Shown here in pieces: positions 8,529 to 22,700 of a DNA stretch of 64,000 nt; the first letter of the stretch is position 1, and the number at the start of each line of letters is the position of its first letter. The stretch is from an uncultured bacterium (GTDB taxonomy: Bacteria > Armatimonadota > Hebobacteria > Hebobacterales > Hebobacteraceae), in NCBI GenBank assembly GCA_964385645.1, contig CAYLPT010000072.1, positions 4,207 through 68,206 on the forward strand, given 5' to 3'. The position numbers and the translations under genes are program-made. The notes under the pieces are model-generated. The model searched no databases. It had not been told where the DNA came from and worked only from the letters and a program-made list of their open reading frames with translations.

Positions 8529-8627
8529 CGCCCCATCCTCGTGTGCCGCGCTTCTTCCCCCCAGCGGTTCCCCAACCTCTCTGTCGGCCCGGGTGAGAGG
8601 AGCCAGGCGTCCGCTGTTCGTGGTATC

Positions 8628-10181
8628 ATGGGCAGCCGCAGGGAGGCCAAGGGCATGGCGTTGAGGGCCACAATCTCGCGCCGGCTGGCCGGGGAGACGG
8701 GCGCCGTCCGCAAGGACCACGGCGGCCGGCTGCGCGTGTGCCTTGTCTACCCGAACACCTACCGGGTCGGCATGTCGAGCCTGGGCTTCCAGGCGGTCTA
8801 TCATCTGCTGAACACAGAGCGCGACGTCGTCTGCGAGCGGGCCTTCATCCCCGACCGGGAGGACCTGGAGGATCTCCACAGGACCGGGGAAGAGCTCGTC
8901 TCCTACGAGTCGCAGACGCCGCTGGGGCGCTTCGACGTGATCGCTTTCTCGGTCTCCTATGAGTTGGACTACGTGCATGTGGCGAGGGCGCTTCGCCTGG
9001 CGAAGGTGTCACCGCTGGCGGCCGACCGCGGCCGCGCCGAGCCGCTCGTGATCGCCGGGGGGGCCGCGGTCTCCATTAACCCGGAGCCGCTCGCCGACCT
9101 GGTCGACGCGGTGGTGCTCGGGGAGGCCGAGGAGGCCGTCGCCGAGGCGGTGAGCGCGGTCCTGCGCTCTGGCGGCGACCGCGCTGGGTCGCTGGACGCC
9201 CTTGCGTCGGTCGGCGGCGTGTATGTTCCCGAGCGGGCGGCGGCCCCGCCGAAGCCGCGGGCCGTGAGGCGCTACATCGAGGACCTCGACGCCTGGCCAA
9301 CCCACTCTCGCCTGCTCACGCGAGAGGCGGAGCTCGGCGACCTGTTCCTGGTCGAGGTGTCGCGGGGGTGCGCCCGGCGCTGTCGGTTCTGCGTCACCCC
9401 CGCCTGCTACTGGCCGCCGCGCTGGCGCTCGGCAGAGTCGGTGCTCGGGGCCGCGCGCGCCGGGCTGGAGCATCGCGACGCGATCGGCCTCGTGGGCGCC
9501 GCGGTGTCCGATCACCCGGAGGTGGACGACATCGCCCGGGGCGTGGTCGCCCTGGGCGCCCGGCTGTCGGTCTCGTCGCTGCGGGCGGACTCGGTGTCGG
9601 ATGTTCTGCTCGACGCTCTGGCGCGGGGTGGCGCGAGGGCCATCACCATCGCGCCGGAGGCGGGAACGGAGCGCCTGCGGCGGGCCATCGGCAAGCCCAT
9701 CCGCGACGAGGCCCTCGCCGATGTGCTCGCGCGGGCGGTGCGGGCCGGGCTGCGGGAGGCGAAGCTGTACTTCATGGTAGGGCTGCCAGGGGAGCAAGAG
9801 GAGGATGTGGAGGCGATTCCCGCGCTCGTCCGAAGGCTCGTGCGCGGGGCGGGCCTGCGCCGCGCCACGGTGGCCGCGGGGGCGTTCGTGCCAAAGCCGG
9901 AGACGCCGTTCGAGGGGGAGGCGATGCTGCCGGCGCGGGAGCTGTCTCGCCGGCTGCGGGCGGTGCGCGACGCGCTGCGGGCCGAGCCTCGCGTTCGTCT
10001 GGCCCTGGAGAGCGCCAACTGGTCGGTCATCGAGGGTGTGCTGAGCCGGGGCGATCGGCGGCTGGGGCGGGTGATCGTCCGCGCCGAGGAGCTGGGCGGC
10101 AACCTGGCGGGGTGGCGGGCGGCCCTGGCGGAGGCCGGGCTAGACCTGACCATGCTCATCGGCCCCCGACCCAAGGGCTGA
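8628..10181 (+). CDS. B12-binding-like domain radical SAM protein (TIGR03960-like, function unknown)
   Basis: N-terminus reads RVCLVYPNTYRVGMSSLGFQAVYHLLN, and the CX3CX2C motif appears as EVSRGCARRCRFCVTP. ATG at 8628 (alternative at 8655). The first 29 codons of the track ORF are probably not translated. Confidence 0.85.
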   Translation: MGSRREAKGMALRATISRRLAGETGAVRKDHGGRLRVCLVYPNTYRVGMSSLGFQAVYHLLNTERDVVCERAFIPDREDLEDLHRTGEELVSYESQTPLGRFDVIAFSVSYELDYVHVARALRLAKVSPLAADRGRAEPLVIAGGAAVSINPEPLADLVDAVVLGEAEEAVAEAVSAVLRSGGDRAGSLDALASVGGVYVPERAAAPPKPRAVRRYIEDLDAWPTHSRLLTREAELGDLFLVEVSRGCARRCRFCVTPACYWPPRWRSAESVLGAARAGLEHRDAIGLVGAAVSDHPEVDDIARGVVALGARLSVSSLRADSVSDVLLDALARGGARAITIAPEAGTERLRRAIGKPIRDEALADVLARAVRAGLREAKLYFMVGLPGEQEEDVEAIPALVRRLVRGAGLRRATVAAGAFVPKPETPFEGEAMLPARELSRRLRAVRDALRAEPRVRLALESANWSVIEGVLSRGDRRLGRVIVRAEELGGNLAGWRAALAEAGLDLTMLIGPRPKG

Positions 10182-10188
10182 GGGGGCC

Positions 10189-10812
10189 TCAGGCGCCCTG
10201 GTCGTCGGAGGGAAGGAAGGCGGCGGGCACCTCATAGCCGGCGTCGGCCAGGAGCGAGAGGAGCAGGCGGCGCTCCTGGGCGTGCTCGGCGTCGAGGAGG
10301 GGAGCGCACTGGACCGGGCTGCGTCGCTCCGCGGCGACCTCGGCCGCGAAGGCGAGGCAGGTGGCAAGGCCGCAGCGACGGCAGTTGGTGCGCGGCAGTA
10401 GCTTGTACACCGTCAGCGGGGTGAGCCGCTCGCGGCGCTCATAGGAGGGCTGGATCTCGCCGCGGCGGGCCCAGGTGTCGTTGATGAGCTCGACGAGCCA
10501 GTCGAGGACCGCGCGCGCGTCCTCGACATCATCCAGCCGGGCCCCCGTGATCAGCCGGTTGTGGAGGCAGATGATCCGCTGGTCCTTCGAGAAGGTCAGC
10601 GCCGGCAGCGCGTGGTTGTAGATCGCGCCAGGGAGGCAGGAGTTGAGGTAGGGGAGGACCGCAGCCATGTCGTCGGATGCCTCGGCGTGAAAACGGATCT
10701 TCGCGGGGTCCGCGAGACATGGGAGCACATGGCAGATCTCGATGGACTCAACCAGCACCTCGAGCACCTGCGGGCGGCCTCGCGAGCGAGCGGCTACCTT
10801 CTCGCTTGCCAT
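10189..10812 (-). CDS. Fe-S protein, paralog 1: unknown N-domain plus C-terminal CFeSP/AcsC-type [4Fe-4S] domain
   Basis: 207 aa from ATG 10810-12. C-terminus YKLLPRTNCRRCGLATCLAFAAEVAAERRSPVQCAPL gives CX2CX4CX16C, as in the N-terminal cluster domain of corrinoid Fe-S protein. Homologous over its full length to the 12407-12973 product. Confidence 0.75.
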   Translation of the reverse strand: MASEKVAARSRGRPQVLEVLVESIEICHVLPCLADPAKIRFHAEASDDMAAVLPYLNSCLPGAIYNHALPALTFSKDQRIICLHNRLITGARLDDVEDARAVLDWLVELINDTWARRGEIQPSYERRERLTPLTVYKLLPRTNCRRCGLATCLAFAAEVAAERRSPVQCAPLLDAEHAQERRLLLSLLADAGYEVPAAFLPSDDQGA

Positions 10813-11021
10813 GCGCGGTACCCGGCGTAGCAGAGCACACCGCCGAGCAAGACGACCTTGCCCGCGGTTGCCCCAGCGGGCTGGCCGTGCTGCGGGGAGC
10901 CGCACGCAGAGCAGGCCCAGGCGCTGGCGCCGGCGATGAGCAGCGGCAAGAGCAAGCCGGCGAGACTCTGAGCGGCGCGTTTCACATCTTCCCCCTTTCC
11001 AGTCTGGCAGAGGCCTTTCAT
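10794..11021 (-). CDS. small exported/membrane CxxC protein (63-75 aa), not listed as a separate ORF in the track
   Basis: C-terminal part of the spurious 315-aa track ORF. ATG at 11019-21 forms an ATGA overlap with the ccdA stop; an alternative GTG at 10985 has a GGGGGAAG SD. Sequence: (MKGLCQTGKGED)VKRAAQSLAGLLLPLLIAGASAWACSACGSPQHGQPAGATAGKVVLLGGVLCYAGYRAWQARR. That reads as signal-like helix, CSAC, then C-terminal TM. Confidence 0.5.
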   Translation of the reverse strand: MKGLCQTGKGEDVKRAAQSLAGLLLPLLIAGASAWACSACGSPQHGQPAGATAGKVVLLGGVLCYAGYRAWQARR

Positions 11022-11707
11022 GCCTCCCACACGAAGTAGACGCCGACCAGGACGAGGACGATGCCCGCGGCCCTCTCCATCCAGCGCGTCCATCGCTCCA
11101 TCGCAGGAAGCGCCTTGACCACACCCGTGAAGGTGCCGGCGGCGATGATGGGCGCCCCGCGGCCGAGGCCGTAGGCGAAGAGGAGCGTGGCCCCGTAGGC
11201 GACCTTCCCCTTCGCCATGACCAGGCCGAGAATGGCGACGAGCACGGGAGTCCCGCACTGAGATCCGGCAAGGCCCACGACGAGGCCGAGCAGAAGGGCG
11301 CCGATAAGGCCGGTGACCGCCACCCGCTTGGGCTTGAGCCGAGCCAGGAAGTCGAAGTTCAGCTGCAGCGCCCCGAGCAGATTCAGGCCGATGAGGAAGC
11401 AGGCCAGGGCGACGAACCAGTAGAGCAGCGTGCGCTCGGTGCCGAAGAGCCCCCCAACCAGCGCGGCGATGAGGCCAAGCAGCATGAACGTGATCGAGCT
11501 TCCCACGGTGAAGAAGGTTGACAGCCAGAAGCCCCTCTTCCTCGTCAAGTCCTGCTGGCCGCCGACGTAACCCATCACCACGGGGACCATGGAGAGGTTG
11601 CAGGGGCCGATGCTGGTGAGCACACCGCCGAGGAAGGCGAGCACATATGCGAGGGCCGAGAGATCGGCGACCATGCTCGGGATAGTCTGTGTAACGAGTC
11701 CGTTCAC
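11018..11707 (-). CDS. ccdA: cytochrome c biogenesis/thiol-disulfide transporter CcdA (DsbD family)
   Basis: 229 aa, 6 TM. LAFLGGVLTSIGPCNLSMVPVVMGYV and GLAGSQCGTPVLVAILG carry the two conserved Cys. GTG start in a GTGA overlap with the upstream thioredoxin gene. Confidence 0.9.
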   Translation of the reverse strand: MNGLVTQTIPSMVADLSALAYVLAFLGGVLTSIGPCNLSMVPVVMGYVGGQQDLTRKRGFWLSTFFTVGSSITFMLLGLIAALVGGLFGTERTLLYWFVALACFLIGLNLLGALQLNFDFLARLKPKRVAVTGLIGALLLGLVVGLAGSQCGTPVLVAILGLVMAKGKVAYGATLLFAYGLGRGAPIIAAGTFTGVVKALPAMERWTRWMERAAGIVLVLVGVYFVWEA

Positions 11708-12390
11708 TGCCCGGCCCCCGCGGCGGCAAGGCGACTGTCAATCTCCTCGCGGTCCATGAAGCCCATGTGGTAGTCCACTTGGCTGCCGGAGGCGTCGAAG
11801 AAGATCTGCGTCGGCATCACCCTGATGCCGTACTCGCGTCCCAGCTCGGGATACTTGTCCAGCTCGACGAAGAGGATGTTGGCACGGCCCCAGTAGTCCT
11901 GGGTGGCCTGCTTCAGGATCGGCTCCATCGCCTTGCATGGGCTGCAGGTTCCCATGCCGAAGTCGGCCATGGTGGGCAAGCCGTTCTTCAGGCACTCCTT
12001 CAGCTTCGACCCGGGCAGAGGCCCTTCGGGCTTGGGCCCCAGGGCCGGTCTCTGTTCCGCCGGCTGCTGCGTCGGAGGCTCCGGCCTTGGATTGCCGGGC
12101 GCCTTGACCTCGGCAGGTGGGCTGAGCTTGTGGGTCTGGGGCTGACTGCCCTCGGCTGACCTCGCCAGTGGGGAGGACACGGGCTTCTGTTCCGCTTGGG
12201 TGGGAGCGGGAGAGGCCTCCCTATCGGGCGCCTCGCCATCAACGGCTGGCGGGGCGGGCTCACCCTGGGCAGGTGACTGGGCCACCACCTCCAGCCCAAG
12301 CGGCTGTGGGGAGTGGCGAGCCTCTTTCGCGATGACGACTCCGACCACGACGAGGACCACGATAAGAACGAGCCACTTCGATCCCTTCAT
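11704..12390 (-). CDS. membrane-anchored thioredoxin-like protein with long Pro/Glu/Ala-rich linker
   Basis: 228 aa from ATG 12388-90 (AGGAGG SD). TM anchor MKGSKWLVLIVVLVVVGVVIA, then a ~115-aa low-complexity linker, then a Trx fold with active site TCSPCK. Confidence 0.85.
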   Translation of the reverse strand: MKGSKWLVLIVVLVVVGVVIAKEARHSPQPLGLEVVAQSPAQGEPAPPAVDGEAPDREASPAPTQAEQKPVSSPLARSAEGSQPQTHKLSPPAEVKAPGNPRPEPPTQQPAEQRPALGPKPEGPLPGSKLKECLKNGLPTMADFGMGTCSPCKAMEPILKQATQDYWGRANILFVELDKYPELGREYGIRVMPTQIFFDASGSQVDYHMGFMDREEIDSRLAAAGAGQ

Positions 12391-12406
12391 GACCTCCTCT
12401 GTCCTT

Positions 12407-12973
12407 TCACAGCCAATCTTCTGGGACCTCGTACCCGGCCGACGCAAGCAGGTCCGCGAGCCGGGCGCGGCGTTCCTCGTGCTCTGGCTCGAGCAGGGGC
12501 GCGCACTGCTCGATGCTCACCTCCTCCTCGGCCAGTTGGGCGGCGAAGGCGAGACACGTCGGCAGGCCGCACCTGCGGCAGTTCGTTCCGGGCAGAACCC
12601 GAAAGAGCTGGAGCGCCGTGAGGCTGGGGGCGCGTCGGTCGCTGGGGGTGATCTCGGCGCGGCGCTCCCAGGTGTCGTTGATGAGGTCCTTCACCCAGTC
12701 GAGCACTCGGCGGGCCTCGTCGGAGTCGGCCAGCTTGCTCACCGCCGCTTGGCGCGGGCGCAGGGTGATGACGTGTCCCTCGTGACGCAGCCGGAGAAAA
12801 GGAGCCTCAGGGTTGTACTGGCAGCCCTTCAGCCTGCCGTTCAGGTAGGGTAAGACCTCCCGGATGTCGTCGCGGAGCGCCGCCAGGCAGTTGGCGTACT
12901 CCGCCGACGGATTGCACTTCGGCGCAAAGAGCTGGAACTTGTACTCGGTGAGCAGCGCCACTGCCCCTGTCAT
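12407..12973 (-). CDS. Fe-S protein, paralog 2: unknown N-domain plus C-terminal CFeSP/AcsC-type [4Fe-4S] domain
   Basis: 188 aa. FRVLPGTNCRRCGLPTCLAFAAQLAEEEVSIEQCAPL gives the same CX2CX4CX16C. It shares VLPYLN...ARxVLDWxxxLINDTWxRR with paralog 1. ATGA overlap with the DGC gene. Confidence 0.75.
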   Translation of the reverse strand: MTGAVALLTEYKFQLFAPKCNPSAEYANCLAALRDDIREVLPYLNGRLKGCQYNPEAPFLRLRHEGHVITLRPRQAAVSKLADSDEARRVLDWVKDLINDTWERRAEITPSDRRAPSLTALQLFRVLPGTNCRRCGLPTCLAFAAQLAEEEVSIEQCAPLLEPEHEERRARLADLLASAGYEVPEDWL

Positions 12974-13377
12974 CTCCCGGCGGCCGCGGTTGACTCCACT
13001 CGCGTGTCGAGTTCCTGCTCAAGCTGGCGGCGGCACGCGTCCAGCTCCTCCGCGGTGTACCCTAGGTCGCCGGAGCGCTTTTCGACGCCGAGCTCCGACA
13101 CGATCACATGGATCTGGGGCTGAAGCTCGGCGTGCTCGAGGCTCTTGCGAGCGCAGGCGAGAGGACAGCCGTCCACGGCTACCAGCACCTTGGCCGCCCT
13201 CGCCGACTCGATCAGCCCCTTCACATGCCCACCGATGCCCGCGAGGCAGAAGAGCCTGCCGCGGCCCGCGTTGTGCAGCTCGACGGCGGCCCGGTCGGCG
13301 ATGCGGGCGCAGTTGGACCCGCCCGAGCACGGGAAGAACAGGACTTCGCTAGGTTCGCAGGCGCACTTCTCAGTCAC
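12970..13377 (-). CDS. DGC-domain (putative zinc-binding) protein
   Basis: 135 aa. FFPCSGGSNCARIADRAA...LFCLAGIGG...VLVAVDGCPLACARK matches the DGC-domain pattern (test against PF08859). Confidence 0.7.
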   Translation of the reverse strand: MTEKCACEPSEVLFFPCSGGSNCARIADRAAVELHNAGRGRLFCLAGIGGHVKGLIESARAAKVLVAVDGCPLACARKSLEHAELQPQIHVIVSELGVEKRSGDLGYTAEELDACRRQLEQELDTRVESTAAAGR

Positions 13378-13388
13378 CGCAGTCCTCC

Positions 13389-13625
13389 TCAGGCCGCCAG
13401 CCAGCCCTTGATCTCGTCCACGGTCGGGATGCGGCCGGCCACCTTGACCTCACCGTCAATGGCGAGGGCCGGCGTGAACATCACCCCGAACTTGGCGATG
13501 TCGGCCGGCTTCTCGACCTTCTCCAGCGTGATCTGCACGCCGGCCGCCTCGGCCGCCGCCTTCGCGTTCTCGGCCGTCTGCTGACACTTCGGGCAGCCGG
13601 TGCCCAGCACTTGCACCTTCTTCAT
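13389..13625 (-). CDS. small thioredoxin-fold protein (redox-active disulfide protein 2 type)
   Basis: 78 aa from ATG 13623-25 (AAGGAGTGAGGGAG SD). MKKVQVLGTGCPKCQQT...FGVMFTPALAIDGEV is the Thioredoxin_3-type pattern usually paired with COG0701 permeases. Confidence 0.85.
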   Translation of the reverse strand: MKKVQVLGTGCPKCQQTAENAKAAAEAAGVQITLEKVEKPADIAKFGVMFTPALAIDGEVKVAGRIPTVDEIKGWLAA

Positions 13626-13642
13626 CTCCCTCACTCCTTACC

Positions 13643-14824
13643 TTACGAGGCTATGGTTCCGTACAGCATCCCCGTCGCCGTGGCCAGCACGACGACGAGG
13701 GCAACGTAGACGAGGGTCTTGCGCAAACCCATGATACCCGCGATGACGAGCATGTTGGGCAGGCTCAGCGAGGGCCCCGCCAACAGCAGGGCGAGCGCCG
13801 GGCCCTTGCCCATGCCCGCGCCCAGCAGCCCCTGGAGGATCGGCACCTCGGTGAGCGTGGCGAAGTACATCAGCGCGCCGGACACGGACGCGAACAGATT
13901 CGCTCTCAAGGAATTGCCGCCCACCAGCCGCGCCACCCACTCCTCCGGGATGAGGGCCATGTGTCCGGGGCGGCCGAGGAGGAAGCCGGCGACGAGCACG
14001 CCGCCGAACAGCAGGGGCAGGATCTGCCACGCGAAGCCCCAGGTGGAGGAGGTCCACTCCTTCAGCTCAGAGCGACGGAACCAGCGCAGCAGCATGAGCG
14101 CGAGAATGACCAGCAGACCGAGCGTGATCCACCACTTCAGCCCGTAGATGGTCGCCCACAGGCTCGGGTTCGACGCGGGCTTGCCCCAGTTGGCGAACAC
14201 CAGGATGCCGACCATGACGGCGAAGTAGGCGGCGGTCTGCCCCAGAGACCGCTCGCCGGCCTCTGGGGATAGGTCGAAGCCGGCCGCCTCGGCGGCCTTG
14301 GCGCGCTCCTCGTGCAGGAAGAACAGGTGCATGCCGAGGCCGACAAGAAACGCGAAGAGGATGGCGCCCACGGCGCGCGCGAGGCCGAGCTCAAAGCCCA
14401 GCACCCGGGCGGTGAGGATGATGGCCAGGACGTTGATGGCAGGGCCGGAGTAGAGGAAAGCGGCGGCAGGCCCGATCCCCGCGCCGCGGGTGTAGATCCC
14501 CGCGAACAGCGGCAAAACGGTGCAGGAGCAGACCGCGAGGATCGTCCCTGACACCGAGGCCACCGAGTACGACAGGAGCTTGTTCGCCGTGGGACCGAAG
14601 TACCTCATCACGGAGGCCTTGCTGACGAACACCGCGATGGCGCCGGCTATGAAGAGGGCGGGCACGAGACAGAGCAGGACGTGCGCGCGGGCATACTCGT
14701 GGAGCATGGCGAAGGCCTCCACGAGCGCCGCCTGGACGCGGCCGCTGCCCACCGGCAGGAAGTAGGCGGCGAGGAACACGCCCAGGAGGATGAGGAACTG
14801 CCTCAGCCTCGTGCTCATCATCAC
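13643..14824 (-). CDS. ArsP-like permease (COG0701/DUF318 family)
   Basis: ~390 aa, ~10 TM. VSGTILAVCSCTVLPLFAG contains the vicinal-Cys CSC motif described for ArsP-type organoarsenical permeases. Start is GTG 14824 or ATG 14821/14818. Confidence 0.8.
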   Translation of the reverse strand: MMMSTRLRQFLILLGVFLAAYFLPVGSGRVQAALVEAFAMLHEYARAHVLLCLVPALFIAGAIAVFVSKASVMRYFGPTANKLLSYSVASVSGTILAVCSCTVLPLFAGIYTRGAGIGPAAAFLYSGPAINVLAIILTARVLGFELGLARAVGAILFAFLVGLGMHLFFLHEERAKAAEAAGFDLSPEAGERSLGQTAAYFAVMVGILVFANWGKPASNPSLWATIYGLKWWITLGLLVILALMLLRWFRRSELKEWTSSTWGFAWQILPLLFGGVLVAGFLLGRPGHMALIPEEWVARLVGGNSLRANLFASVSGALMYFATLTEVPILQGLLGAGMGKGPALALLLAGPSLSLPNMLVIAGIMGLRKTLVYVALVVVLATATGMLYGTIAS

Positions 14825-15162
14825 TAGCGCCCCAGCGCGACCGCAAGGTCCTCGATGTGCGCGAGCTGGTCGGCCAGGATCTCGCGCATGTGGTCAAGGA
14901 CGTGGTAGATGCGCTCGTCGCGGACTCGGTAGTAGATGATGTGCCCCTCGCGCCGGGTATCCACCAGCCCCGCCCGGCGAAGCGCGGCCAGCAGCTGCGA
15001 CATGTTGGACTCTGTCACCCCCGCCCGAGGAGCGAGCCGGCACACGCACTCCTCACCCTCGCGCAGGAGGTCGAGGACCTTCATCCTGGTGGGGTGGCCC
15101 AGGGCCTTGCACACGGAGGCGTGCAAGCGGTAGATCCGGTCATCAGCGAGTGGTTCGCGCAT
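14824..15162 (-). CDS. arsR: ArsR/SmtB family transcriptional regulator
   Basis: Winged-helix core HASVCKALGHPTRMKVLDLLREGEECVCRLAPRAGVTESNMSQLLAALRRAGLV. ATG at 15160-62; the track ORF begins at TTG 15171. Confidence 0.88.
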   Translation of the reverse strand: MREPLADDRIYRLHASVCKALGHPTRMKVLDLLREGEECVCRLAPRAGVTESNMSQLLAALRRAGLVDTRREGHIIYYRVRDERIYHVLDHMREILADQLAHIEDLAVALGR

Positions 15163-15178
15163 CGTCCCCAATCCTCAT

Positions 15179-15198
15179 ATCCGCTTATCCTTGCGGAT
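15179..15198. promoter_or_regulatory. candidate ArsR operator (ATCCGC-N8-GCGGAT)
   Basis: Perfect 6-bp inverted repeat with an 8-nt spacer, 17 nt upstream of the arsR ATG, in an unusually AT-richer stretch (tcatATCCGCttatccttGCGGATtata). Confidence 0.4.
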
Positions 15199-15302
15199 TA
15201 TACCGGAAACGGCGGCCTTGTCAACCCCCCTGGTGGTGCAACGTACAACGCGGCGCGGATGCCGGCCCGGGCCAGCCAGCCCCCCCTGGCCCTGGGCGCT
15301 CC

Positions 15303-15488
15303 CTACCGGTCGGGCATGGACGAGGGCCCCTCGAACACGGGTCGGCAGTGTCCCTTGATGTGCAGGTCAACCTTGGGCTTGACGACCCGCTTCAGGAATT
15401 CGAGCGCTCCCTTCTCGTCCCGGTCCATCAGGAGTTCCTCGAGCTGCATCTGGGCAGCGTCGTCGAGGGTGATGGTGATGTTCGGCAT
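15303..15488 (-). CDS. hypothetical 61-aa protein
   Basis: ATG with GAGGTGA SD, 24 nt after the upstream gene stop. Sequence: MPNITITLDDAAQMQLEELLMDRDEKGALEFLKRVVKPKVDLHIKGHCRPVFEGPSSMPDR. No family recognised. Confidence 0.5.
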   Translation of the reverse strand: MPNITITLDDAAQMQLEELLMDRDEKGALEFLKRVVKPKVDLHIKGHCRPVFEGPSSMPDR

Positions 15489-15512: not shown

Positions 15513-15842
15513 TCACTCGGTGCTCAAGGTCACACTCACGTCTCTTGGCAGCGCCACGCGCGCCGCTGCCTGGAGCGCCTTGAAGATGCCCACGGGCACC
15601 GCGCACGCGGCGCAGCAGCCCAGGAGTTTCCCCCGCGCGGTGGACAAGATAACGCCGTCTGAGCCCTTGGCGATCTCCTCGTAGGCGTCTATCTGCCGGC
15701 CGTTGAGAGCCTCCGCGAGAGCGCGGACCTTGTCGCAGTCGGTGTGGATGGTCAGGGTGACCATCTGCTCATCAGGCGAGTCGGCCTCAACGGCAGTCTG
15801 GAAGCCGCAGACGCCAGCGTGGACACGCGCGGTGCACTTCAC
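15513..15842 (-). CDS. hypothetical Cys-rich 109-aa protein
   Basis: GTG at 15840-42 with GGAGGGAG SD, 2 nt after the arsM stop. Six Cys, including VHAGVCGF and LLGCCAACAVP. The N-terminal 69 aa of the track ORF are antisense to arsM and are rejected. Confidence 0.6.
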   Translation of the reverse strand: MKCTARVHAGVCGFQTAVEADSPDEQMVTLTIHTDCDKVRALAEALNGRQIDAYEEIAKGSDGVILSTARGKLLGCCAACAVPVGIFKALQAAARVALPRDVSVTLSTE

Positions 15843-15844
15843 GG

Positions 15845-16621
15845 TCAGTCTCCCTCCGAGGGCTTGCGAGCCGTGATGTGGAGGCTCGTCACGACGCCCC
15901 GCAGGTCTGCTGCGCGGGCGCCGGAGCCGCAGCAGTCCGCCGCCAGCAGCTCTGCCGCGTCGGCCTCTGAGGCCACGCACACCTCCTGCAGGCCGGCCGC
16001 TGCCAGCCCCGCCAGGTACTCGGCCCGGGGCGCGGCGCCGGAGACGCAAGAGCAGTAGGCGTCGGCATCGCCTCGCAGCGCGTCGGGGAGGGCGCCGTCG
16101 AGCACGATGTCGGCGATGGCGATACGACCGCCGGGCCTCAGGACGCGAGCGATCTCTCCGAAGGCCCGCGCCTTGTCCGGCGCCAGGCAGAGCACGCAGT
16201 TGCTCATGACGAGGTCAACGGAGGCGTCCGGGAGGGGGAGACTCTCGATGTCACCGAGGTGGAACTCCACGTTGGTGTAGCCGGCGGCCGCCGCGTTCGC
16301 CCGGGCCCGCTGGATCATCTCCGGCGTCATGTCCACGCCGATGACGCGTCCGGTGGGGCCGACCCGGGCCGCAGCGAGGAAGACGTCCAGGCCCGCCCCG
16401 CACCCCAGGTCGAGCACGGTCTCCCCGGGCTCAATGCCCGCAAGCGCGACCGGATTGCCGCAGCCGAGCCCCAGGTCCGCGCCGGCGGGAGCCGCGGCCA
16501 GGTCCTCCCGCCTGTAGCCGATGCGCTCCCCGGCTGGCGCGGGGGCCTCACAGCAGCTCGACTGCGCCTCTCTCGCGATCGCGCCGTAGCGCTCCGTCAC
16601 CCATTCCTTAGCCTGCGACAT
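15845..16621 (-). CDS. arsM: arsenite S-adenosylmethionine methyltransferase
   Basis: 258 aa. ERYGAIAREAQSSCCE (N-terminal Cys pair), GCGNPVALAGIEPGETVLDLGCGAGLD (SAM motif I), VMSNCVLCLAPDK and YCSCVSGA match ArsM/AS3MT. Confidence 0.88.
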   Translation of the reverse strand: MSQAKEWVTERYGAIAREAQSSCCEAPAPAGERIGYRREDLAAAPAGADLGLGCGNPVALAGIEPGETVLDLGCGAGLDVFLAAARVGPTGRVIGVDMTPEMIQRARANAAAAGYTNVEFHLGDIESLPLPDASVDLVMSNCVLCLAPDKARAFGEIARVLRPGGRIAIADIVLDGALPDALRGDADAYCSCVSGAAPRAEYLAGLAAAGLQEVCVASEADAAELLAADCCGSGARAADLRGVVTSLHITARKPSEGD

Positions 16622-16639: not shown

Positions 16640-16951
16640 CTAGCGATTGCTCGAATGCGCGGGGTCGTAGCCCGAGCGCTCCCGGCGCAGCTGCGCCGCC
16701 CACCTGCGGACCTGCTCGAGCGCCGGGCGGAGCCGGGCCGGGTCGGCCGTCTCGCCCGACAGCATGTAGCCCAACATCAGCACGTTCGCCTGCACGCCCG
16801 GTGGGCACCATTCCTCCTTGGGGTCGAAGCGGTACATCCCGGGCGGCGGGAGGTCAGACTCCCGGTAGCGGCACCACTGCTTCATCTCCAGCCCCAGTCC
16901 GACGCACACGTCGTAACAGGGGCACTGGATGATCTCCTCGCGCTCATTCAT
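16640..16951 (-). CDS. hypothetical Cys-rich 103-aa protein
   Basis: ATG with GAGGAG SD. Sequence begins MNEREEIIQCPCYDVCVGLGLEMKQWCRYRESDLPPPGMYRFDPKEEWCPPG. Five Cys, no family recognised. Sits 18 nt upstream of arsM. Confidence 0.55.
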   Translation of the reverse strand: MNEREEIIQCPCYDVCVGLGLEMKQWCRYRESDLPPPGMYRFDPKEEWCPPGVQANVLMLGYMLSGETADPARLRPALEQVRRWAAQLRRERSGYDPAHSSNR

Positions 16952-17069: not shown

Positions 17070-17942
17070 CTAGCGGATCTGGGGTACCAGCAACACAGGA
17101 GCCTCCGAGCGCCGCGCGACCGCCAGGCTCACACTGCCCAGGAACAGCTCCGCGAGGAAGCCCCGGCCTTGGCTGCCCATGACGACCAGCGAGACGTCGC
17201 CGCGGGTGCGCGCGATGATCTCCTTCTTCGGGGAGCCATATGGTATCTCGATCTGCACGTCGGCGACACCGAGCCCCTCCAGCTCGTGCTTGAGGCGTGT
17301 CAGCCGATCGGTGTCAATCCGCTTGAACTCCTCCAGGCGATCGCTCAGGTGAGGCGAGAGCTTCGCCTCGTCCTGGACGTGCAGCAGGGTGATCCGCCGG
17401 GCGCCGACCTCGGCGATCTGACGCACGAACGCGAACGCGTGCTCGGCGTTATCAGAGAAGTCGGTGGGAAAGAGCACATGCCGCAGCGGGTCGCAGTCGG
17501 CCGGCTCGCATACGGCGCGGCCGTCCTCCTCCCGCCTGAGCCGGAGTCGGAGCAACAGCACGGGCTTGGAGGCGCTGTTGATGACGGCGCTGGCTACCCC
17601 GCCGAGCAGGATCTCAGAGGCCATCGTCTGTCCGTGTGAGCCCACGACGATCATAGAGGCGCCGGCCTCCTCCGCGATCCGGTTGACCTCTGCGTGGGGA
17701 AGCCCGAGCACGATCCTCGCCTCGGTCTCAAAGCCCAGCTCCTCGAGGAGCCGCTTCTGCCTGTCAAGGGTCGGCTGGGCCAGCGCGGTCAACTGATTCG
17801 CCAGGGTTCCGACGTCTCGGATGTTGAGGCAATGCACAAGAAGCGCCTGCCGGGTCTTCAGCGCCTTGAGACCTGCGAGCGCACACACGACTTGGTCGGA
17901 GGCCTGTGAGAGGTCGGTCGCCACAAGCATCTTGGTGAACAT
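17070..17942 (-). CDS. tandem universal stress protein (UspA) domain protein
   Basis: 290 aa. Two Usp repeats, each ending in the ATP-binding-type G-x2-G-x9-G-S pattern (VVGSHGQTMASEILLGGVASAV; VVMGSQGRGFLAELFLGSVSLAV). Confidence 0.88.
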   Translation of the reverse strand: MFTKMLVATDLSQASDQVVCALAGLKALKTRQALLVHCLNIRDVGTLANQLTALAQPTLDRQKRLLEELGFETEARIVLGLPHAEVNRIAEEAGASMIVVGSHGQTMASEILLGGVASAVINSASKPVLLLRLRLRREEDGRAVCEPADCDPLRHVLFPTDFSDNAEHAFAFVRQIAEVGARRITLLHVQDEAKLSPHLSDRLEEFKRIDTDRLTRLKHELEGLGVADVQIEIPYGSPKKEIIARTRGDVSLVVMGSQGRGFLAELFLGSVSLAVARRSEAPVLLVPQIR

Positions 17943-17958
17943 CTGCGCACTCCTCTCC

Positions 17959-19077
17959 TCAAGCGTGTTCGGCGGCGGCGAACCAGCGTTGGGTTCGCAC
18001 GCACACCCGCACCAGCATCAGCATGACCGGAACCTCAATCAGCACCCCGACCACCGTCGCCAGGGCGGCGCCGGAGCCCAGGCCGAAGAGCATGGTGGCG
18101 GTGGCGATGGCGACCTCGAAGTGGTTCGACGCGCCGATCATCGCCGAGGGAGCCGCGTCCCCATACGTGAAGCGCAGCAGGCGCGCCGCCGAGTAGGTGA
18201 TCCCGAAGATCAGCCAGGTCTGGATGAAGAGGGGGATGGCGATCCAGAGGATGGTCAGCGGATTGCCGAGGATGGTGTCGCCCTTGAGGGAGAACAGCAG
18301 CACCAGCGTCCCCAGCAAGGCGATGATTGATACCGGCGTGAGATAGTGCAGGAACTTGGTCGCGAACCAGAGGGGACCCTTGGCGGCGAGGACCCACTTG
18401 CGGGTGAAATAGCCGGCCACCAGGGGGAGGGCGACGTAGATGCCCACAGACAGCAGCAGCGCCTGCCAGGGAACGGGCATCTCGTTCACCCCCAGCAGCC
18501 ACCCGCCCAGCACCCCATAGAGCAGCAGCATGGTCAGCGAGTTGATCGCCACCATTACCAGGGTGTGCCCCTGGTTGCCGTTCGCCAGGTACCCCCACAC
18601 CAGCACCATGGCGGTGCAGGGCGCGATGCCCAGCAGGATGGCGCCGGAGATGTAGGAGCGGAACAGCTCCACCTGCGTGCCGTCCTTGACCACCTCGGTG
18701 CCAGGCACCAGGTCACGGAACAGGTAGCCGAGGAAGGCGGTGGCGATGGCGAACATGGTGAAGGGCTTGATCGCCCAGTTGACCACCAGCGTGAGCAGCA
18801 CGGGCCTCAGGTTCTTGCCGGCCCGGACCACCTCGGCGAAGTCAATCTTCACCATGATGGGGTACATCATGAAGAAGAGCGCGATGGCGATGGGGATGGA
18901 CACGACGGGCGCATCCCCCACGTAGATCGCCATGCCGTCCAGGGCCCTCGCCAGGCCCGGGACGAGCCTGCCCAGCCCGATGCCGCAGCCGATGCAGAGC
19001 ACTACCCACAGCGTCAGGTATCTCTCGAAGACATTGAGGCCTTTGGGCTGGCTGGCAGCGGCCGACGAAGCCGTCAC
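17959..19077 (-). CDS. acr3: arsenite efflux transporter ACR3
   Basis: 372 aa from GTG 19075-77 (GGGGAGGTGAG SD). [23 protein letters not shown]...[13 protein letters not shown]...[10 protein letters not shown] is the typical ACR3 family sequence. The upstream 57 codons of the track ORF are rejected. Confidence 0.9.
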
Positions 19078-19147
19078 CGGCTCACCTCCCCTGGGGCGAT
19101 AGATGGGCCAATGTACATATGAACATGTGTCCGGCAGCCAAGGACCG

Positions 19148-19507
19148 TCAGGGGCACCGGACCATGGCCCCCTTCTCGCGCGGACGCAGGCTCCGCGACA
19201 GCCGGCGCTCGTCCAACCGTGCGGCCGGCTCCTGCGCAACGCAGTCACACGCGGCCTCGAGCAGCGCGCGCTCGGGCGCGGAGAGAGAGGACGCCAGCAT
19301 GTAGTGCATCCACTTGCCCTGGCGCCAGTCGCTCACCACCCCCGCGGCCTTGAGCACCCCGAGGTGTCGGGACACACGGTACTGCGGCAGGTCGAGCGCG
19401 TCCACAATCTCGCAGACGCACAGCTCCTCGCGGCCCCGCAGCAGCCGGCAGATGCGCAGCCGCGTGGGATCCGCGAGCGCCTTGGTGAGCTGCACCGCTC
19501 GGATCAT
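19148..19507 (-). CDS. arsR: ArsR family transcriptional regulator (ELCVCE metalloid-site type)
   Basis: 119 aa from ATG 19505-07. [48 protein letters not shown]. Confidence 0.9.
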
Positions 19508-19511
19508 GGGG

Positions 19512-19537
19512 TCATATGCCTCACATCGCATATGATA
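19512..19537 (-). promoter_or_regulatory. candidate ArsR operator overlapping the arsR-acr3 promoter -10
   Basis: Perfect inverted repeat TCATATGC-N8-GCATATGA (19512-19535). On the minus strand TTGCGC-17-TATCAT (-10 at 19532-37) overlaps the distal arm. A third CATATG-centred near-palindrome, TGTACATATGAACA, lies at 19112-19125 between arsR and acr3. Confidence 0.45.
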
Positions 19538-19630
19538 CCCCAAAACGACCGGAAGCGCAACCCCCCGGGGGCCTCGCACGCAGGAAGGTGGGGCCGCGGC
19601 GGCGACGAACCTGGGGCCGGCGGGAGTGGA

Positions 19631-19659
19631 TTGACTTGACGTGGAGGGCATGATACCAT
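19631..19659 (+). promoter_or_regulatory. candidate sigma70-type promoter of the giant-FtsX operon
   Basis: TTGACT (19631-36), 17 nt spacer, TACCAT (19654-59) with TGa extended -10. Located 55 nt upstream of ATG 19714. Confidence 0.4.
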
Positions 19660-19713
19660 CCCCGGATGGGGGGGGGTGGAGAGTCGCCGGAACACAGTGC
19701 AGGAGGGGTAGTG

Positions 19714-22700
19714 ATGGTCAAGGCAACACTCCGGCGGGCGCTGATCGCCTCTGTTGGCGGCTTCCTGCTGCTGGCGATCGCGGGTGGGTCGCCCTGCCTC
19801 GGCGCATTGGGCAAGAAGGAGCCCACTCCGGAGCAGAAGGAGTGGTGGGGCGCCTTCTCCAGGGAGGTCAAGCAGTCCGAGCTCGAGCGCCACATGGAGG
19901 CGCTCAGTTCGTTCCAGCCCCGGCTGGCCGGCTACCCGGGGGCCCAGCAGGCAGCCGAGTACATCGTCGGGGAGCTCCAGAAGCTGGGCCTCAAGGATGT
20001 GAGCCGGGGCGGCCTCGAGGAGTACAAGGAGCCCTACCGCGAGGCCTTCTGGGTGACGGTGCCGTGGGTATGGGGGGAGCCGTCACTGGAGGTCGTGCAG
20101 GACGGCCGGCCGGTGCGCAGCTTCCGGCTCTACCCGCTCTGGCCCAACGTGGTGCGGACCTCGCACCTGCCCAGGGGCGGCCAGAGCTACCCGCTGATCT
20201 ACGGGGGCGAGGGGAGGCTGGCGGAGTTCAGCGGCAAGGACATCGCGGGCACCGCGGTGCTGATGGAGTTCAACTGCGGCTCGAACTGGCTCAACGCCCC
20301 CCGCCTCGGGGCGGAGGCGGTGATCTTCATCGAGCCGGAGACGACGACCCGGGGCGAGGCGGAGGCGAAGTTCCTCCGCATCCCCATCAACATCCCCCGC
20401 TTCTGGATCGGGCGCAGCGACGCCTACGAGCTGCTGGCCCTGCTCAAGTCCCGACCCGAGGTGACGGTGCACATCGAGTGCAACATGACGTGGGAGCGCA
20501 AGCCCGCCTGGAACGTCGTGGCGGAGATCCCCGGCACCGACCCCGAGCTGAGCAAACAGGCCGTCTATCTCACCGCCTACTACGACTCGATGTCCATCGT
20601 GCCTGAGCTCTCGCCGGGCGCGGAGAGCACGGCCGGCGCGGCGAGCCTGCTGGAGATCACGCGCATCCTCTCCCAGCATCCCCCGAAGCGCACGGTGCGC
20701 GTCATCTTCAACGGCGCCCACTTCCTGGGGCTGGCGGGGATCCGCAACTACATCGCCAACCACCTGGACGACCTGATCGAGGGCCAGCCGGTGCGGGTCA
20801 CCAGGAGGTTCCTCGGGCTGATCCCCTACCGGAGGACGGTCCGGGAGAAGATGAACATCAACCTCTTCCTGGCCTTCGACCTCTCGACGAACCACGACCG
20901 GGTGGGGGTGTTCTACAAGGGGATGTTCTACGACCAGCGCGAGGACATGGACATCAGCCGCCAGTTCTCGGACTTCGCGCGCACCCTGCGGGAGAACGCC
21001 CAGCTCATGGCCGACTGGGGCACGACGGTGGGCTTCAGCAGCGCCTCCGGGCAGTTCGCCGACGGCGTCAACCCCATCTACGGCAAGCCCTGGCGGACCT
21101 TCATCTTCGGCAAGATCGCCCTCGACAACGAGCCCGTCACCCTCGGCGGAGGCCGGGGGGCGGCCTTCGTGACCACCGACGACGCCCGCGCCCTGGTGGA
21201 CACGCCCTTCGACACCATCGAGCACGTCAACTTCCGGAACCTCTACCGCCAGACCTGCTTCCTGGCGGCCACCATGTGGGATATCGTCAATGACCCCAAG
21301 ATGCCGGTGGACCGGGACCCGCAGTTCTCCCGCATGATGGTCTCGGGCGGCTTCGCCGAGGTGACGGTCAACGCGCTCGCCTTCGATCCCACCAGGAGCA
21401 TCGTGGCGGACAAGGTCGTGGACGGGACCATGGTGGTGGCGCGCATGTCGGACTCCACGCTCATGGGCACCCGGGGCGACCTGGTGGAGATCGTGGACGA
21501 GAAGGGGCAGGCCAAGTTCTGGGGCTACCCCACCATCAACGCCTACGGGTGGCGCAAGCCCAGCTTCATCGAGGCCTACCACACCGACCCGGAGACCGGC
21601 CACATTGACTACGCGCCCGACTGGGGGCCGATGGCGAACCGCAACTACCCCCGGGACCCGACCCAGTTCTTCATCACCAGCGGCCGGAGGGAGTTCACGC
21701 TGGTGCTGTTCGACTGCGTCCCCCTGGCGCTGTACGACCTGGTGGACCCCCAGAGCCTGACCACGCTGCGCTACATCAAGGTGTTCGACGGCATGACCGA
21801 CGCCGAGCCCCGCCGCTACGGCGTGACCATCCCCCGCCCGGAGCCCTGGCGAGGGCACGTCGAGGATGTGGCCCTGATCTTTGTGGACCCCGGCCACCGG
21901 GTGAAGGTGATGATGGGCCTGGGGCCGGGCTCGGTGCGGATGTTGCTGCTGAACGCCGAGACCATCAGCAAGGAGAACCCGAGCGGGCTGGGCTACTTGG
22001 TTGATCGGCCCATGGCCCTCGCCCGCACCCCCCTGCACGTCACGGAGGACATGTGGACCCTGGACGAGCTGCGCATGCAGAAGCTGGCGGGCTTCCGCAT
22101 CGTCAACGACATCGTGTGGGAGCACCACAGCCGGGCGGAGGAGCTGCTCGGGGAGGCGCGGGAGGCGCTCGCCCAGAGGGACTACGAGCTGTCCGACGCG
22201 AAGGCCCGCGCGGCCTGGGGCTACGAGGCGAGGGCCTACCCGGCCGTGCTCTCCACCATGAACGACGTCGTGAAGGGCGTGCTGTTCTACCTCGCCCTCA
22301 TGTTGCCCTTCGCCTTCTTCGTGGAGCGGCTCATCTTCGCGTTCCCGAACCTGCGGCTGCAGATCGTGGGCTTCGTGGGCATCTTCGTGGTCATCTGCGT
22401 GATCTTCGCCTTCATCCACCCGGCCTTCGAGATCACCAACAACCCCTGGATCGTACCCCTGGCATTCATCATGCTCGCCCTGAGCATCCTCGTCATCACC
22501 CTGGTGACCATGAAGTTCGAGGCCCAGCTCAAGGCCCTGCAGATGAAGGTCTCGGGGGTGCACCGCGCGGACATCGGGCGCATGGGCGTGGCTGCGGCGG
22601 CCTTCTCGCTGGGGATCAGCAACATGCGCAAGCGCCGCGCGCGGACCGTCTTCACCTGCCTCACGCTGGTGCTGCTCACCTTCACCGTGTTGTCCTTCAC

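Follow-up and report, generated by a model that had tools for sequence, protein, structure and literature searches.

Within a 64,000-nucleotide (nt) stretch of DNA from an uncultured bacterium of the Armatimonadota (assembly GCA_964385645.1, contig CAYLPT010000072.1, positions 4,207 to 68,206; below, the window), nine densely packed genes on the minus strand, at 10189-15162, may form an operon that is accessory to an ars island and induced by arsenic. In the reading that we prefer, with a probability of roughly 0.4, this operon would encode an ArsP-type exporter together with a membrane-spanning thiol relay, and two paralogous iron-sulfur (Fe-S) proteins, FeS1 and FeS2, would give the relay low-potential electrons. 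The genes, their order and their domains had been proposed in a sequence-only reading of the same DNA, and domain models now confirm them, with matches to PF04060, PF08859, PF03773, PF13192 and PF02683. From arsR onward, the genes are:

14824-15162, minus strand: arsR, ArsR/SmtB repressor (PF01022 HTH_5 44.8 bits, cutoff 22; NF033788 87.2 bits, cutoff 55)
13643-14824, minus strand: ArsP_1 (COG0701) permease (PF03773 252.8 bits, cutoff 32.3; motif AVCSCTVLP)
13389-13625, minus strand: small Trx-fold protein of 78 amino acids (aa), Trx3, of the MTH895/ArsE family (PF13192/TIGR00412 96.9 bits, cutoff 62; CPKC)
12970-13377, minus strand: cysteine-rich DGC-domain protein (PF08859 105 bits)
12407-12973, minus strand: FeS2, Fe-S paralog 2 (PF04060 49.7 bits, cutoff 23; Cys20 and Cys132/135/140/157)
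11704-12390, minus strand: membrane-anchored thioredoxin (PF00085 44.4 bits; CSPC; N-terminal transmembrane (TM) helix and Pro/Glu/Ala linker of ~115 aa)
11018-11707, minus strand: CcdA, the DsbD transmembrane domain (PF02683 91.9 bits, cutoff 27.1; both catalytic cysteines present)
10794-11021 (probable start GTG 10985), minus strand: small CSAC membrane protein (signal peptide, CSAC, C-terminal TM helix; no Pfam match)
10189-10767 or 10812 (GTG 10767 likelier), minus strand: FeS1, Fe-S paralog 1 (PF04060 40.7 bits, cutoff 23)

All nine genes overlap or are separated by gaps of at most about 32 nt. Counted from the arsR side, the first seven junctions are a TAGTG overlap, 17 nt, 11 nt, ATGA, 16 nt, GTGA, and ATGA. 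The claim that every junction is an overlap or a gap of 17 nt or less holds everywhere except after ccdA and before FeS1. The small CSAC gene probably starts at GTG 10985, a position that fits the N-terminus of its homologues and is preceded by the ribosome-binding site GGAAAGGGGG, and thus lies 32 nt behind ccdA. For FeS1, GTG 10767 is the start called in the 96%-identical contig L086 (related loci are given by such numbers) and leaves a gap of 26 nt, while the alternative ATG 10812 would make a 19-nt overlap with the small CSAC gene. The G+C content at third codon positions is 0.80-0.94 for all nine genes. Neither an internal promoter nor a minus-strand terminator was predicted inside the operon, and Rfam and tRNA scans of the whole window yielded no matches.

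The role of the Fe-S proteins is the main question of the operon, the other parts being mostly known. FeS1 and FeS2 share a two-domain build, with ~110 N-terminal residues followed by a C-terminal [4Fe-4S] domain. The C-terminal 50 residues are homologous to the N-terminal [4Fe-4S] domain of the corrinoid iron-sulfur protein (CFeSP; PDB 2h9a) at E 3e-14, with all four cysteine ligands aligned (CX2CX4CX16C) and ~40% identity across the cluster domain; Foldseek, run with a model of the Fe-S protein, also finds 2ycl. This part is hence a domain of the CFeSP/RnfB type, with the [4Fe-4S] cluster itself predicted. Domains of this type are electron-transfer modules. Models of whole proteins failed, as the CFeSP large-subunit model NF003195 scored 56.7 bits versus 306 and was matched at model positions 3-52 only, and the RnfB model TIGR01944 scored 28.8 bits versus the cutoff of 68.7. 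Thus, the Fe-S paralogs share the ligand pattern with the CFeSP large subunit (AcsC/CdhE; 2h9a/2ycl, 4djd) and the RnfB N-terminus, but they lack the corrinoid-binding or TIM-barrel part, and they carry the cluster domain at the C-terminus, behind a possibly TBP-like domain that has a conserved cysteine of its own.

This N-terminal domain has no match in Pfam or NCBIfam. In the AlphaFold2 model (pLDDT 91) it comprises a sheet plus two helices, and its only Foldseek neighbours are single TBP repeats, both archaeal and eukaryotic, with weak scores (E 0.05-0.3, root-mean-square deviation 1.6-3.7 over ~80-88 columns). The profile match to the TBP 2z8u is weak as well (E 0.41). Among 218 sequences of the family, Cys20 is conserved in 98% and the four cluster ligands in 96%, and a PYLN motif is conserved as well. 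When 1.84 billion representative proteins were scanned with the N-terminal domain only, 431 clusters (defined at 50% identity) were obtained at E <= 1e-3. The family is named 'ArsR family metal-binding transcriptional regulator' in IMG and '(Fe-S)-binding protein' in NCBI, and we found no description of it in the literature.

Several members carry additional domains. In P0184, a MarR winged-helix domain is fused to an entire Fe-S protein; in P0206, the fusion partner of the entire protein is o61, a small helical protein also encoded just upstream of the operon; and in P0208, a PyrK-like NAD-binding/[2Fe-2S] module is fused to the N-terminal domain. No fusion with ArsR was found in ~120 fetched loci, though the IMG name hints at one. 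One clade (P0202, P0238, P0244, and P0251; L010, L011, L014, and L021) has an extra N-terminal domain of ~100 aa without a Pfam match, and its genes adjoin hemL, not ars genes. In the neighbour-joining tree, the orthologues of FeS1 and FeS2 separate across Armatimonadota loci, indicating that the duplication is old and has been maintained.

To describe the synteny, open reading frames (ORFs) of all fetched loci were profiled with hidden Markov models built from the window proteins. The genome set was comprised of 35 species-representative loci with the full Fe-S family, and the metagenomic set, of the 80 closest relatives, with counts taken from the 47 closest loci of at least 5 kb. Ars islands with a member of the family were seen in at least eight bacterial phyla and in one archaeal lineage. 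Of the 35 species-level loci, 23 hold one or more ars-type genes; ArsR was found in 18, ACR3 in 16, Trx3 in 14, ArsC in 11, ArsP in 10, and DGC in nine. With ACR3 and ArsM genes also adjoining the operon in the window, the link to metalloids is stronger than had been noted from the sequence. None of these partners was seen in 45 control loci with the PF04060 domain only (CdhE type, mostly from Desulfobacterota). A relay of the DsbD type is present in nine species-level loci, as CcdA with a thioredoxin (five loci) or as ArsF with ArsG (four). Among the 47 metagenomic loci, 17 have both CcdA and the thioredoxin, 19 carry two Fe-S copies, and in 14 CcdA lies immediately upstream of an Fe-S gene, a position held by ArsG in other loci. 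Small ferredoxin genes share the locus in 5/35 species-level and 7/47 metagenomic cases.

The gene order of the window, arsR-ArsP-Trx3-DGC-FeS2-Trx-CcdA(-FeS1), is also found in L087, L089, L095, and L104 at 76-85% identity, and L092, L097, and L098 follow it up to the thioredoxin gene, with no CcdA detected there. The core Trx3-FeS2-Trx-CcdA-FeS1 is retained at about 50% identity in L081, L105, and L106. L083, L099, and L100 have a version without DGC, followed by arsR-ACR3-ArsM, and L084, L142, and L157 have a single Fe-S gene behind CcdA. In a lineage with ~45% identity (L003, L126, L130, L145, and L153), o61-Trx-CcdA precedes one or, mostly, two adjacent Fe-S genes, usually with Trx3 after them. 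In Syntrophaceae, Phycisphaerae, Planctomycetota, and Dissulfuribacterales, the genes are found in rearranged order. The position of ArsP and DGC is variable, as a ferredoxin-TauE-FmdE cassette replaces them in L001 (5847-7966), L085 (7154-8951), and L094, and accompanies ArsP in L096 and L153; the cassette is also present in L117 and L120. These shared gene orders support the co-conservation of the Fe-S family with ccdA and trx; in many loci, though, CcdA is missing, and 26 of the 35 species-level loci have neither relay type.

Expression of the operon appears to be governed by two overlapping elements in front of arsR:

15197-15224, minus strand: sigma-70 promoter TTGACA-16-TATAAT, with 12/12 consensus matches
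15179-15198, no strand assigned: inverted repeat ATCCGC-N8-GCGGAT, a probable ArsR operator, overlapping the -10 box of the promoter

Only 0.7 sites with at least 9/12 matches are expected in shuffled sequences, and this consensus promoter was found in a genome of about 70% G+C. L083 and L084 keep the repeat in front of arsR as TATAATCCGC-N8-GCGGA(T), and L001 has it with a left arm changed at two positions. The TTGAC(A)...TATAAT layout is likewise found upstream of arsR in all three loci, whose proteins are only 66-75% identical to the window ArsR. Since it recurs upstream of orthologous arsR genes, the inverted repeat, which had already been pointed out upstream of arsR in the window, is a phylogenetic footprint of the predicted operator. 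The orthologous ArsRs of L083, L084, and L001 also share the CVC motif of the alpha-3 helix, EECVCRL, with the window ArsR, which makes responsiveness to arsenic plausible. The motif aligns with what we take to be ELCVCDL, i.e., Cys32/Cys34, in the R773 ArsR; the window protein has no counterpart of the third cysteine (Cys37) of the R773-type site.

The permease covers the full ArsP_1 domain (profile positions 5-293 of 294), and its cysteine pair, CSC, is taken as membrane-embedded. It stays below the equivalog cutoffs for SaoE (97 bits vs 325) and SO_0444 (95 vs 300), and is probably an ArsP-type exporter of the methylarsenite type, family TC 2.A.119. Trx3 matches PDB 1ilo (MTH895) at E 3e-15; its CxxC is present in 19 of 20 homologues, the remaining ORF being truncated at the N-terminus, and the CxxC motifs of both thioredoxins are conserved in all full-length homologues examined. 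The DGC-domain protein has no solved relative in PDB. In CcdA, the motifs GPCNLSMV and SQCGTPVL are found in 11/11 full-length homologues, while a twelfth ORF is cut by the contig end. The protein scores 61.9 bits with the ArsG model NF040495, below the cutoff of 200 bits, compared to 270 bits for a true ArsG from L013.

The tethered thioredoxin is comprised of the N-terminal anchor MKGSKWLVLIVVLVVVGVVIA, the linker, and a CSPC thioredoxin fold. With 19 bits versus the cutoff of 170 for the ResA subfamily, it is not a ResA orthologue. The Pro/Glu/Ala tether is hypervariable and changes much faster than the remaining operon, with one indel and about 20 replacements relative to L086 1113-1802 (96% nucleotide identity), and among homologues of 145-358 aa it can be nearly absent (about 0 residues) or longer than 200 residues. 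The small CSAC protein had one match only in a word-indexed search, and a comparison of its gene with L086 (five synonymous and four non-synonymous changes) was uninformative. We considered that this ORF may be spurious and dropped the idea after homologues of the same build (signal peptide, CSC, C-terminal TM helix) had appeared in L093 and L094 (hmmsearch E 3e-38), which means that it is a real gene.

We infer the inducer, the direction in which electrons flow, their transfer from Fe-S protein to thiol, and the target outside the cytoplasm as follows. ArsR would occupy the inverted repeat over the -10 box and leave the DNA on binding As(III) or a trivalent organoarsenical. The derepressed operon would then produce a thiol-lined exporter of the ArsP type and a dedicated transmembrane thiol-reducing relay. 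On the cytoplasmic side, the relay would include the ArsE-type thioredoxin (CPKC) and the cysteine-rich DGC protein; CcdA would perform the membrane step; and on the outer side the long-tethered thioredoxin (CSPC) and the small anchored protein with its cysteine pair would hold extracytoplasmic thiols reduced. The protected thiols could be the exporter's own or those hit by exported As(III) or methylarsenite. Finally, FeS1 and FeS2, in the cytoplasm, would accept low-potential electrons, with ferredoxin as one possible donor, and use them to reduce relay disulfides in Trx3 and/or CcdA, as functional analogues of ferredoxin:thioredoxin reductase (FTR). Four observations on the Fe-S family suggest such electron input: its type of cluster domain, ferredoxin genes linked to it, the fusion to a PyrK-like module, and CcdA, ArsG, and Trx3 as neighbours. 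The analogy with FTR would concern the function only, namely a [4Fe-4S] protein passing single ferredoxin electrons to a disulfide. No similarity of sequence or fold was detected, and FTR has a redox-active cysteine pair by its cluster, whereas the Fe-S family has one extra conserved cysteine.

Most of the remaining machinery has known parallels. In the CcdA and DsbD pathways, disulfide exchange leads from the cytoplasm to the outside. The window operon resembles CcdA-ResA, CcdA-CcmG, and DsbD in that it combines a two-cysteine CcdA core with a membrane-anchored extracytoplasmic CxxC thioredoxin, but it has no adjoining cytochrome c maturation genes, is headed by a probable ArsR operator, and includes flanking Fe-S proteins without a counterpart. 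CcdA, thioredoxin, redox-active disulfide protein 2, and ArsP were listed as determinants of ars operons in a 2010 survey, where CcdA was proposed to carry electrons across the membrane and the genes were tied to ArsC-dependent arsenate reduction (PMC2963123). The same three redox genes and ArsP are found here; on the other hand, the survey mentions no Fe-S protein, and the window island contains no arsC within the region examined. In Pseudodesulfovibrio mercurii ND132, 'operon C' (DND132_2311-2314), arsR-arsP-arsE-DGC, is up-regulated by both As(III) and As(V) (bioRxiv 10.1101/2022.10.17.512643). Its genes are identical in order to the first four genes of the window operon (ArsR, PF03773, PF13192, PF08859), and together with the same order in several of our loci this bears out the recurrence of the trio of arsR, COG0701 permease, and Trx-fold protein. 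As described, operon C ends after DGC, while the window operon adds FeS2, the tethered thioredoxin, CcdA, the small protein with a cysteine pair, and FeS1. Hence the combination, which the sequence-only reading did not recognise as a described system, is so only in part: CcdA, thioredoxin, and ArsP in ars operons, as well as arsR-arsP-arsE-DGC, have been described, and what is new here, as far as could be found, is limited to the Fe-S family and the small CSAC protein and to the way in which they are placed.

A number of observations weigh against the proposed electron relay. The single conserved non-ligand cysteine of the Fe-S family is one of them, as we know of no Fe-S disulfide reductase chemistry with one extra cysteine, unless the protein dimerises. 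The nearest solved relatives of the window ArsR are Rv0081 and SqrR, neither of them an arsenic sensor. Both the operator and arsR are absent upstream of the core in L081, which means that arsenic specificity is not inherent in the relay. Since the metagenomic loci are closely related to the query, their counts are not independent. In the species-level set, 26 of 35 Fe-S loci have neither DsbD-type relay within 8 kb, and the Fe-S family thus does not depend on CcdA. Moreover, arsR is the commonest immediate downstream neighbour of Fe-S genes (8/48), for instance in the order FeS-arsR-acr3-arsC of L012, L024, and L030, and this adjacency, together with the MarR fusion in P0184, is as compatible with a sensing or regulatory role as with electron transport.

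A serious alternative is that the Fe-S proteins are redox or arsenic sensors that act as co-regulators with ArsR-type repressors, the cluster and Cys20 reporting oxygen, redox state, or As(III), while CcdA and the tethered thioredoxin form a separate module fed by an ordinary cytoplasmic thioredoxin or by Trx3. Apart from the arsR neighbours, the fusion, and the lack of CcdA in the majority of the family loci, this would agree with the regulator name in IMG and with the possibly TBP-like fold of the N-terminal domain and its weak sequence match to TBP. The structural match is, however, weak itself (E about 0.05), and the fold is common among proteins that do not bind DNA; the name is not backed by an ArsR fusion in the ~120 loci; and in the window the Fe-S genes are distal, flanking trx-ccdA away from arsR. 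The known function of CFeSP/RnfB-type domains, the PyrK-like fusion, and the linked ferredoxin genes all indicate electron transfer, and the adjacency of CcdA to Fe-S genes is frequent.

Another alternative retains the Fe-S proteins as electron donors and changes the task of the relay. Trx3, CcdA, and the tethered thioredoxin would make up an ArsEFG-type system with a canonical CcdA that reduces an extracytoplasmic or membrane-bound arsenical, such as nitroaromatic arsenicals, methylarsenate (MAs(V)), or As(V). As in ArsEFG of Shewanella putrefaciens 200 (NF040494 ArsF, NF040495 ArsG, TIGR00412 ArsE), Trx3-type, DsbD-superfamily, and exported CxxC proteins come together in ars islands, and NCBIfam places the small thioredoxin in the 'MTH895/ArsE' family. 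True ArsF (107 bits, cutoff 60) and ArsG (270 vs 200) adjoin Fe-S genes in L007, L012, L013, L017, L107, and L150, in the positions taken in the window by the tethered thioredoxin and CcdA; an ArsF-like protein that was examined carries a hydrophobic segment at its N-terminus together with a CxxC; and ArsM adjoins the operon. Since true ArsF and ArsG take these positions beside the Fe-S genes, ArsE/ArsG/ArsF and Trx3/CcdA/Trx look like two versions of one topology. This is the topology of a cytoplasm-to-outside thiol relay, and it sits oddly with the annotation of ArsG as an efflux permease. Still, we find the ArsEFG-type reduction doubtful: the CcdA of the window is canonical (62 bits with the ArsG model, cutoff 200), its exported partner is an ordinary PF00085 thioredoxin on a long tether instead of ArsF, the substrate cannot be deduced from the sequence, and the role assigned to ArsG, which NCBIfam names aminobenzylarsenical efflux permease, is not that of an electron carrier. 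Chen, Zhang and Rosen are said to have given it the same role of efflux permease, and not electron carrier, in 2019.

Very unlikely, in our opinion, is a chaperone or buffer in which the five conserved cysteines bind As(III) or methylarsenite (MAs(III)) instead of, or besides, the cluster and pass it to ArsP, ACR3, or TauE, in the way ArsD passes it to ArsA: the five cysteines are near-invariant, the family is almost confined to ars-type contexts, and exporters do adjoin Fe-S genes (ACR3 four times and ArsP three times as the downstream neighbour; TauE-FeS in L085, L117, and L119), but the four C-terminal cysteines align exactly with the crystallographic [4Fe-4S] ligands of CFeSP at ~40% identity, the sequence has no resemblance to ArsD, and this role would leave unexplained why ferredoxin genes are linked, why a PyrK-like fusion exists, and why CcdA and ArsG are neighbours.

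The electron-relay reading also has a bolder form, in which the Fe-S proteins would constitute a new class of iron-sulfur-dependent disulfide reductases that charge DsbD-superfamily proteins (CcdA in the window, ArsG in other loci) or their partner Trx3 with low-potential electrons of ferredoxin, giving anaerobes an NADPH-independent transmembrane thiol relay devoted to extracytoplasmic arsenic chemistry. We consider this unlikely. If it were true, the reduction of pentavalent methylated arsenicals, which has yet to be assigned, would be one candidate reaction, and ArsEFG would be the same kind of machine, with ArsG an electron carrier rather than a permease only.

If the Fe-S proteins do feed the relay, this would explain what powers the extracytoplasmic thiol chemistry of strict anaerobes under arsenic stress. 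The ars islands of anaerobes hold many unassigned genes, and in this case the Fe-S family would be a concrete candidate for an unnamed ars gene. As sensors, the Fe-S proteins would add a redox input to the regulation by ArsR. In any case, a widespread uncharacterised Fe-S family deserves biochemical study.

Upstream of the operon, on the same strand, lie the other genes of the island:

17070-19651, minus strand: second arsR (ELCVCEI; HTH_5), ACR3 (TIGR00832 372 bits vs 283), and a tandem-USP protein (Usp matches); start codons approximate
16640-16951, minus strand: cysteine-containing ORF of 103 aa, no family match
15845-16621, minus strand: arsenite methyltransferase ArsM (NF008823 304 bits, cutoff 263)
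15513-15854, minus strand: cysteine-rich DUF6951 protein (PF22263 90 bits)
15303-15488, minus strand: o61, conserved helical protein of 61 aa, last gene of the upstream ArsM unit

The order on the minus strand is thus arsR2, ACR3, USP, the 103-aa ORF, ArsM, DUF6951, o61, and then the nine-gene operon. Together these genes make up an ars island of 9.5 kb, with the operon as its distal part. That the Fe-S proteins replace the missing ArsC was considered and rejected, as ArsC is present in about 10 of the 16 genome-set loci holding ACR3. The island is flanked by a 1560-aa M28/FtsX gene at 19666-24348 on the plus strand and by a B12-binding radical-SAM gene at 8541-10181, also on the plus strand, which is convergent with the operon and ends 7 nt from the FeS1 stop codon. 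The same two genes bracket the related loci L081, L084, and L086, including Armatimonadota metagenome-assembled genomes (MAGs); the best genome match of the locus is an Armatimonadota MAG with 82% identity. Between these flanks, L081 contains only Trx3-FeS2-Trx-CcdA-FeS1, which indicates that the five-gene core is constant and the ars genes are variable additions. The site therefore resembles a hot spot of variable genes surrounding the constant core.

Outside the ars context, 28 loci have no recognised ars or relay partner; these are mostly short contigs, with one clade beside hemL and another beside xdhC. In the Chloroflexota-type loci L034, L004, L008, L128, L136, and L138, a gene of an XdhC-family maturation factor directly follows the Fe-S gene. 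A single record, unannotated and from Acetoanaerobium, came up in a plasmid collection, and no ars genes could be recognised next to the match.

Between the o61 stop codon and the arsR promoter, at 15263-15298, there is a G+C-rich inverted repeat with 13-nt arms, which could serve the upstream ArsM unit as a terminator, although it lacks a T-run. ArsM itself is flanked by the DUF6951 protein and the 103-aa ORF, and DUF6951 is also present in the ars locus L012. The o61 family comprises helical proteins of 55-60 aa with the motif L..iLlD.D.egAl.FLk and no match in Pfam or NCBIfam, and its genes are repeatedly found beside or between Fe-S genes (L004, L008, L016, L028, L030, L032, L085, L126, L145, L153, and L156).

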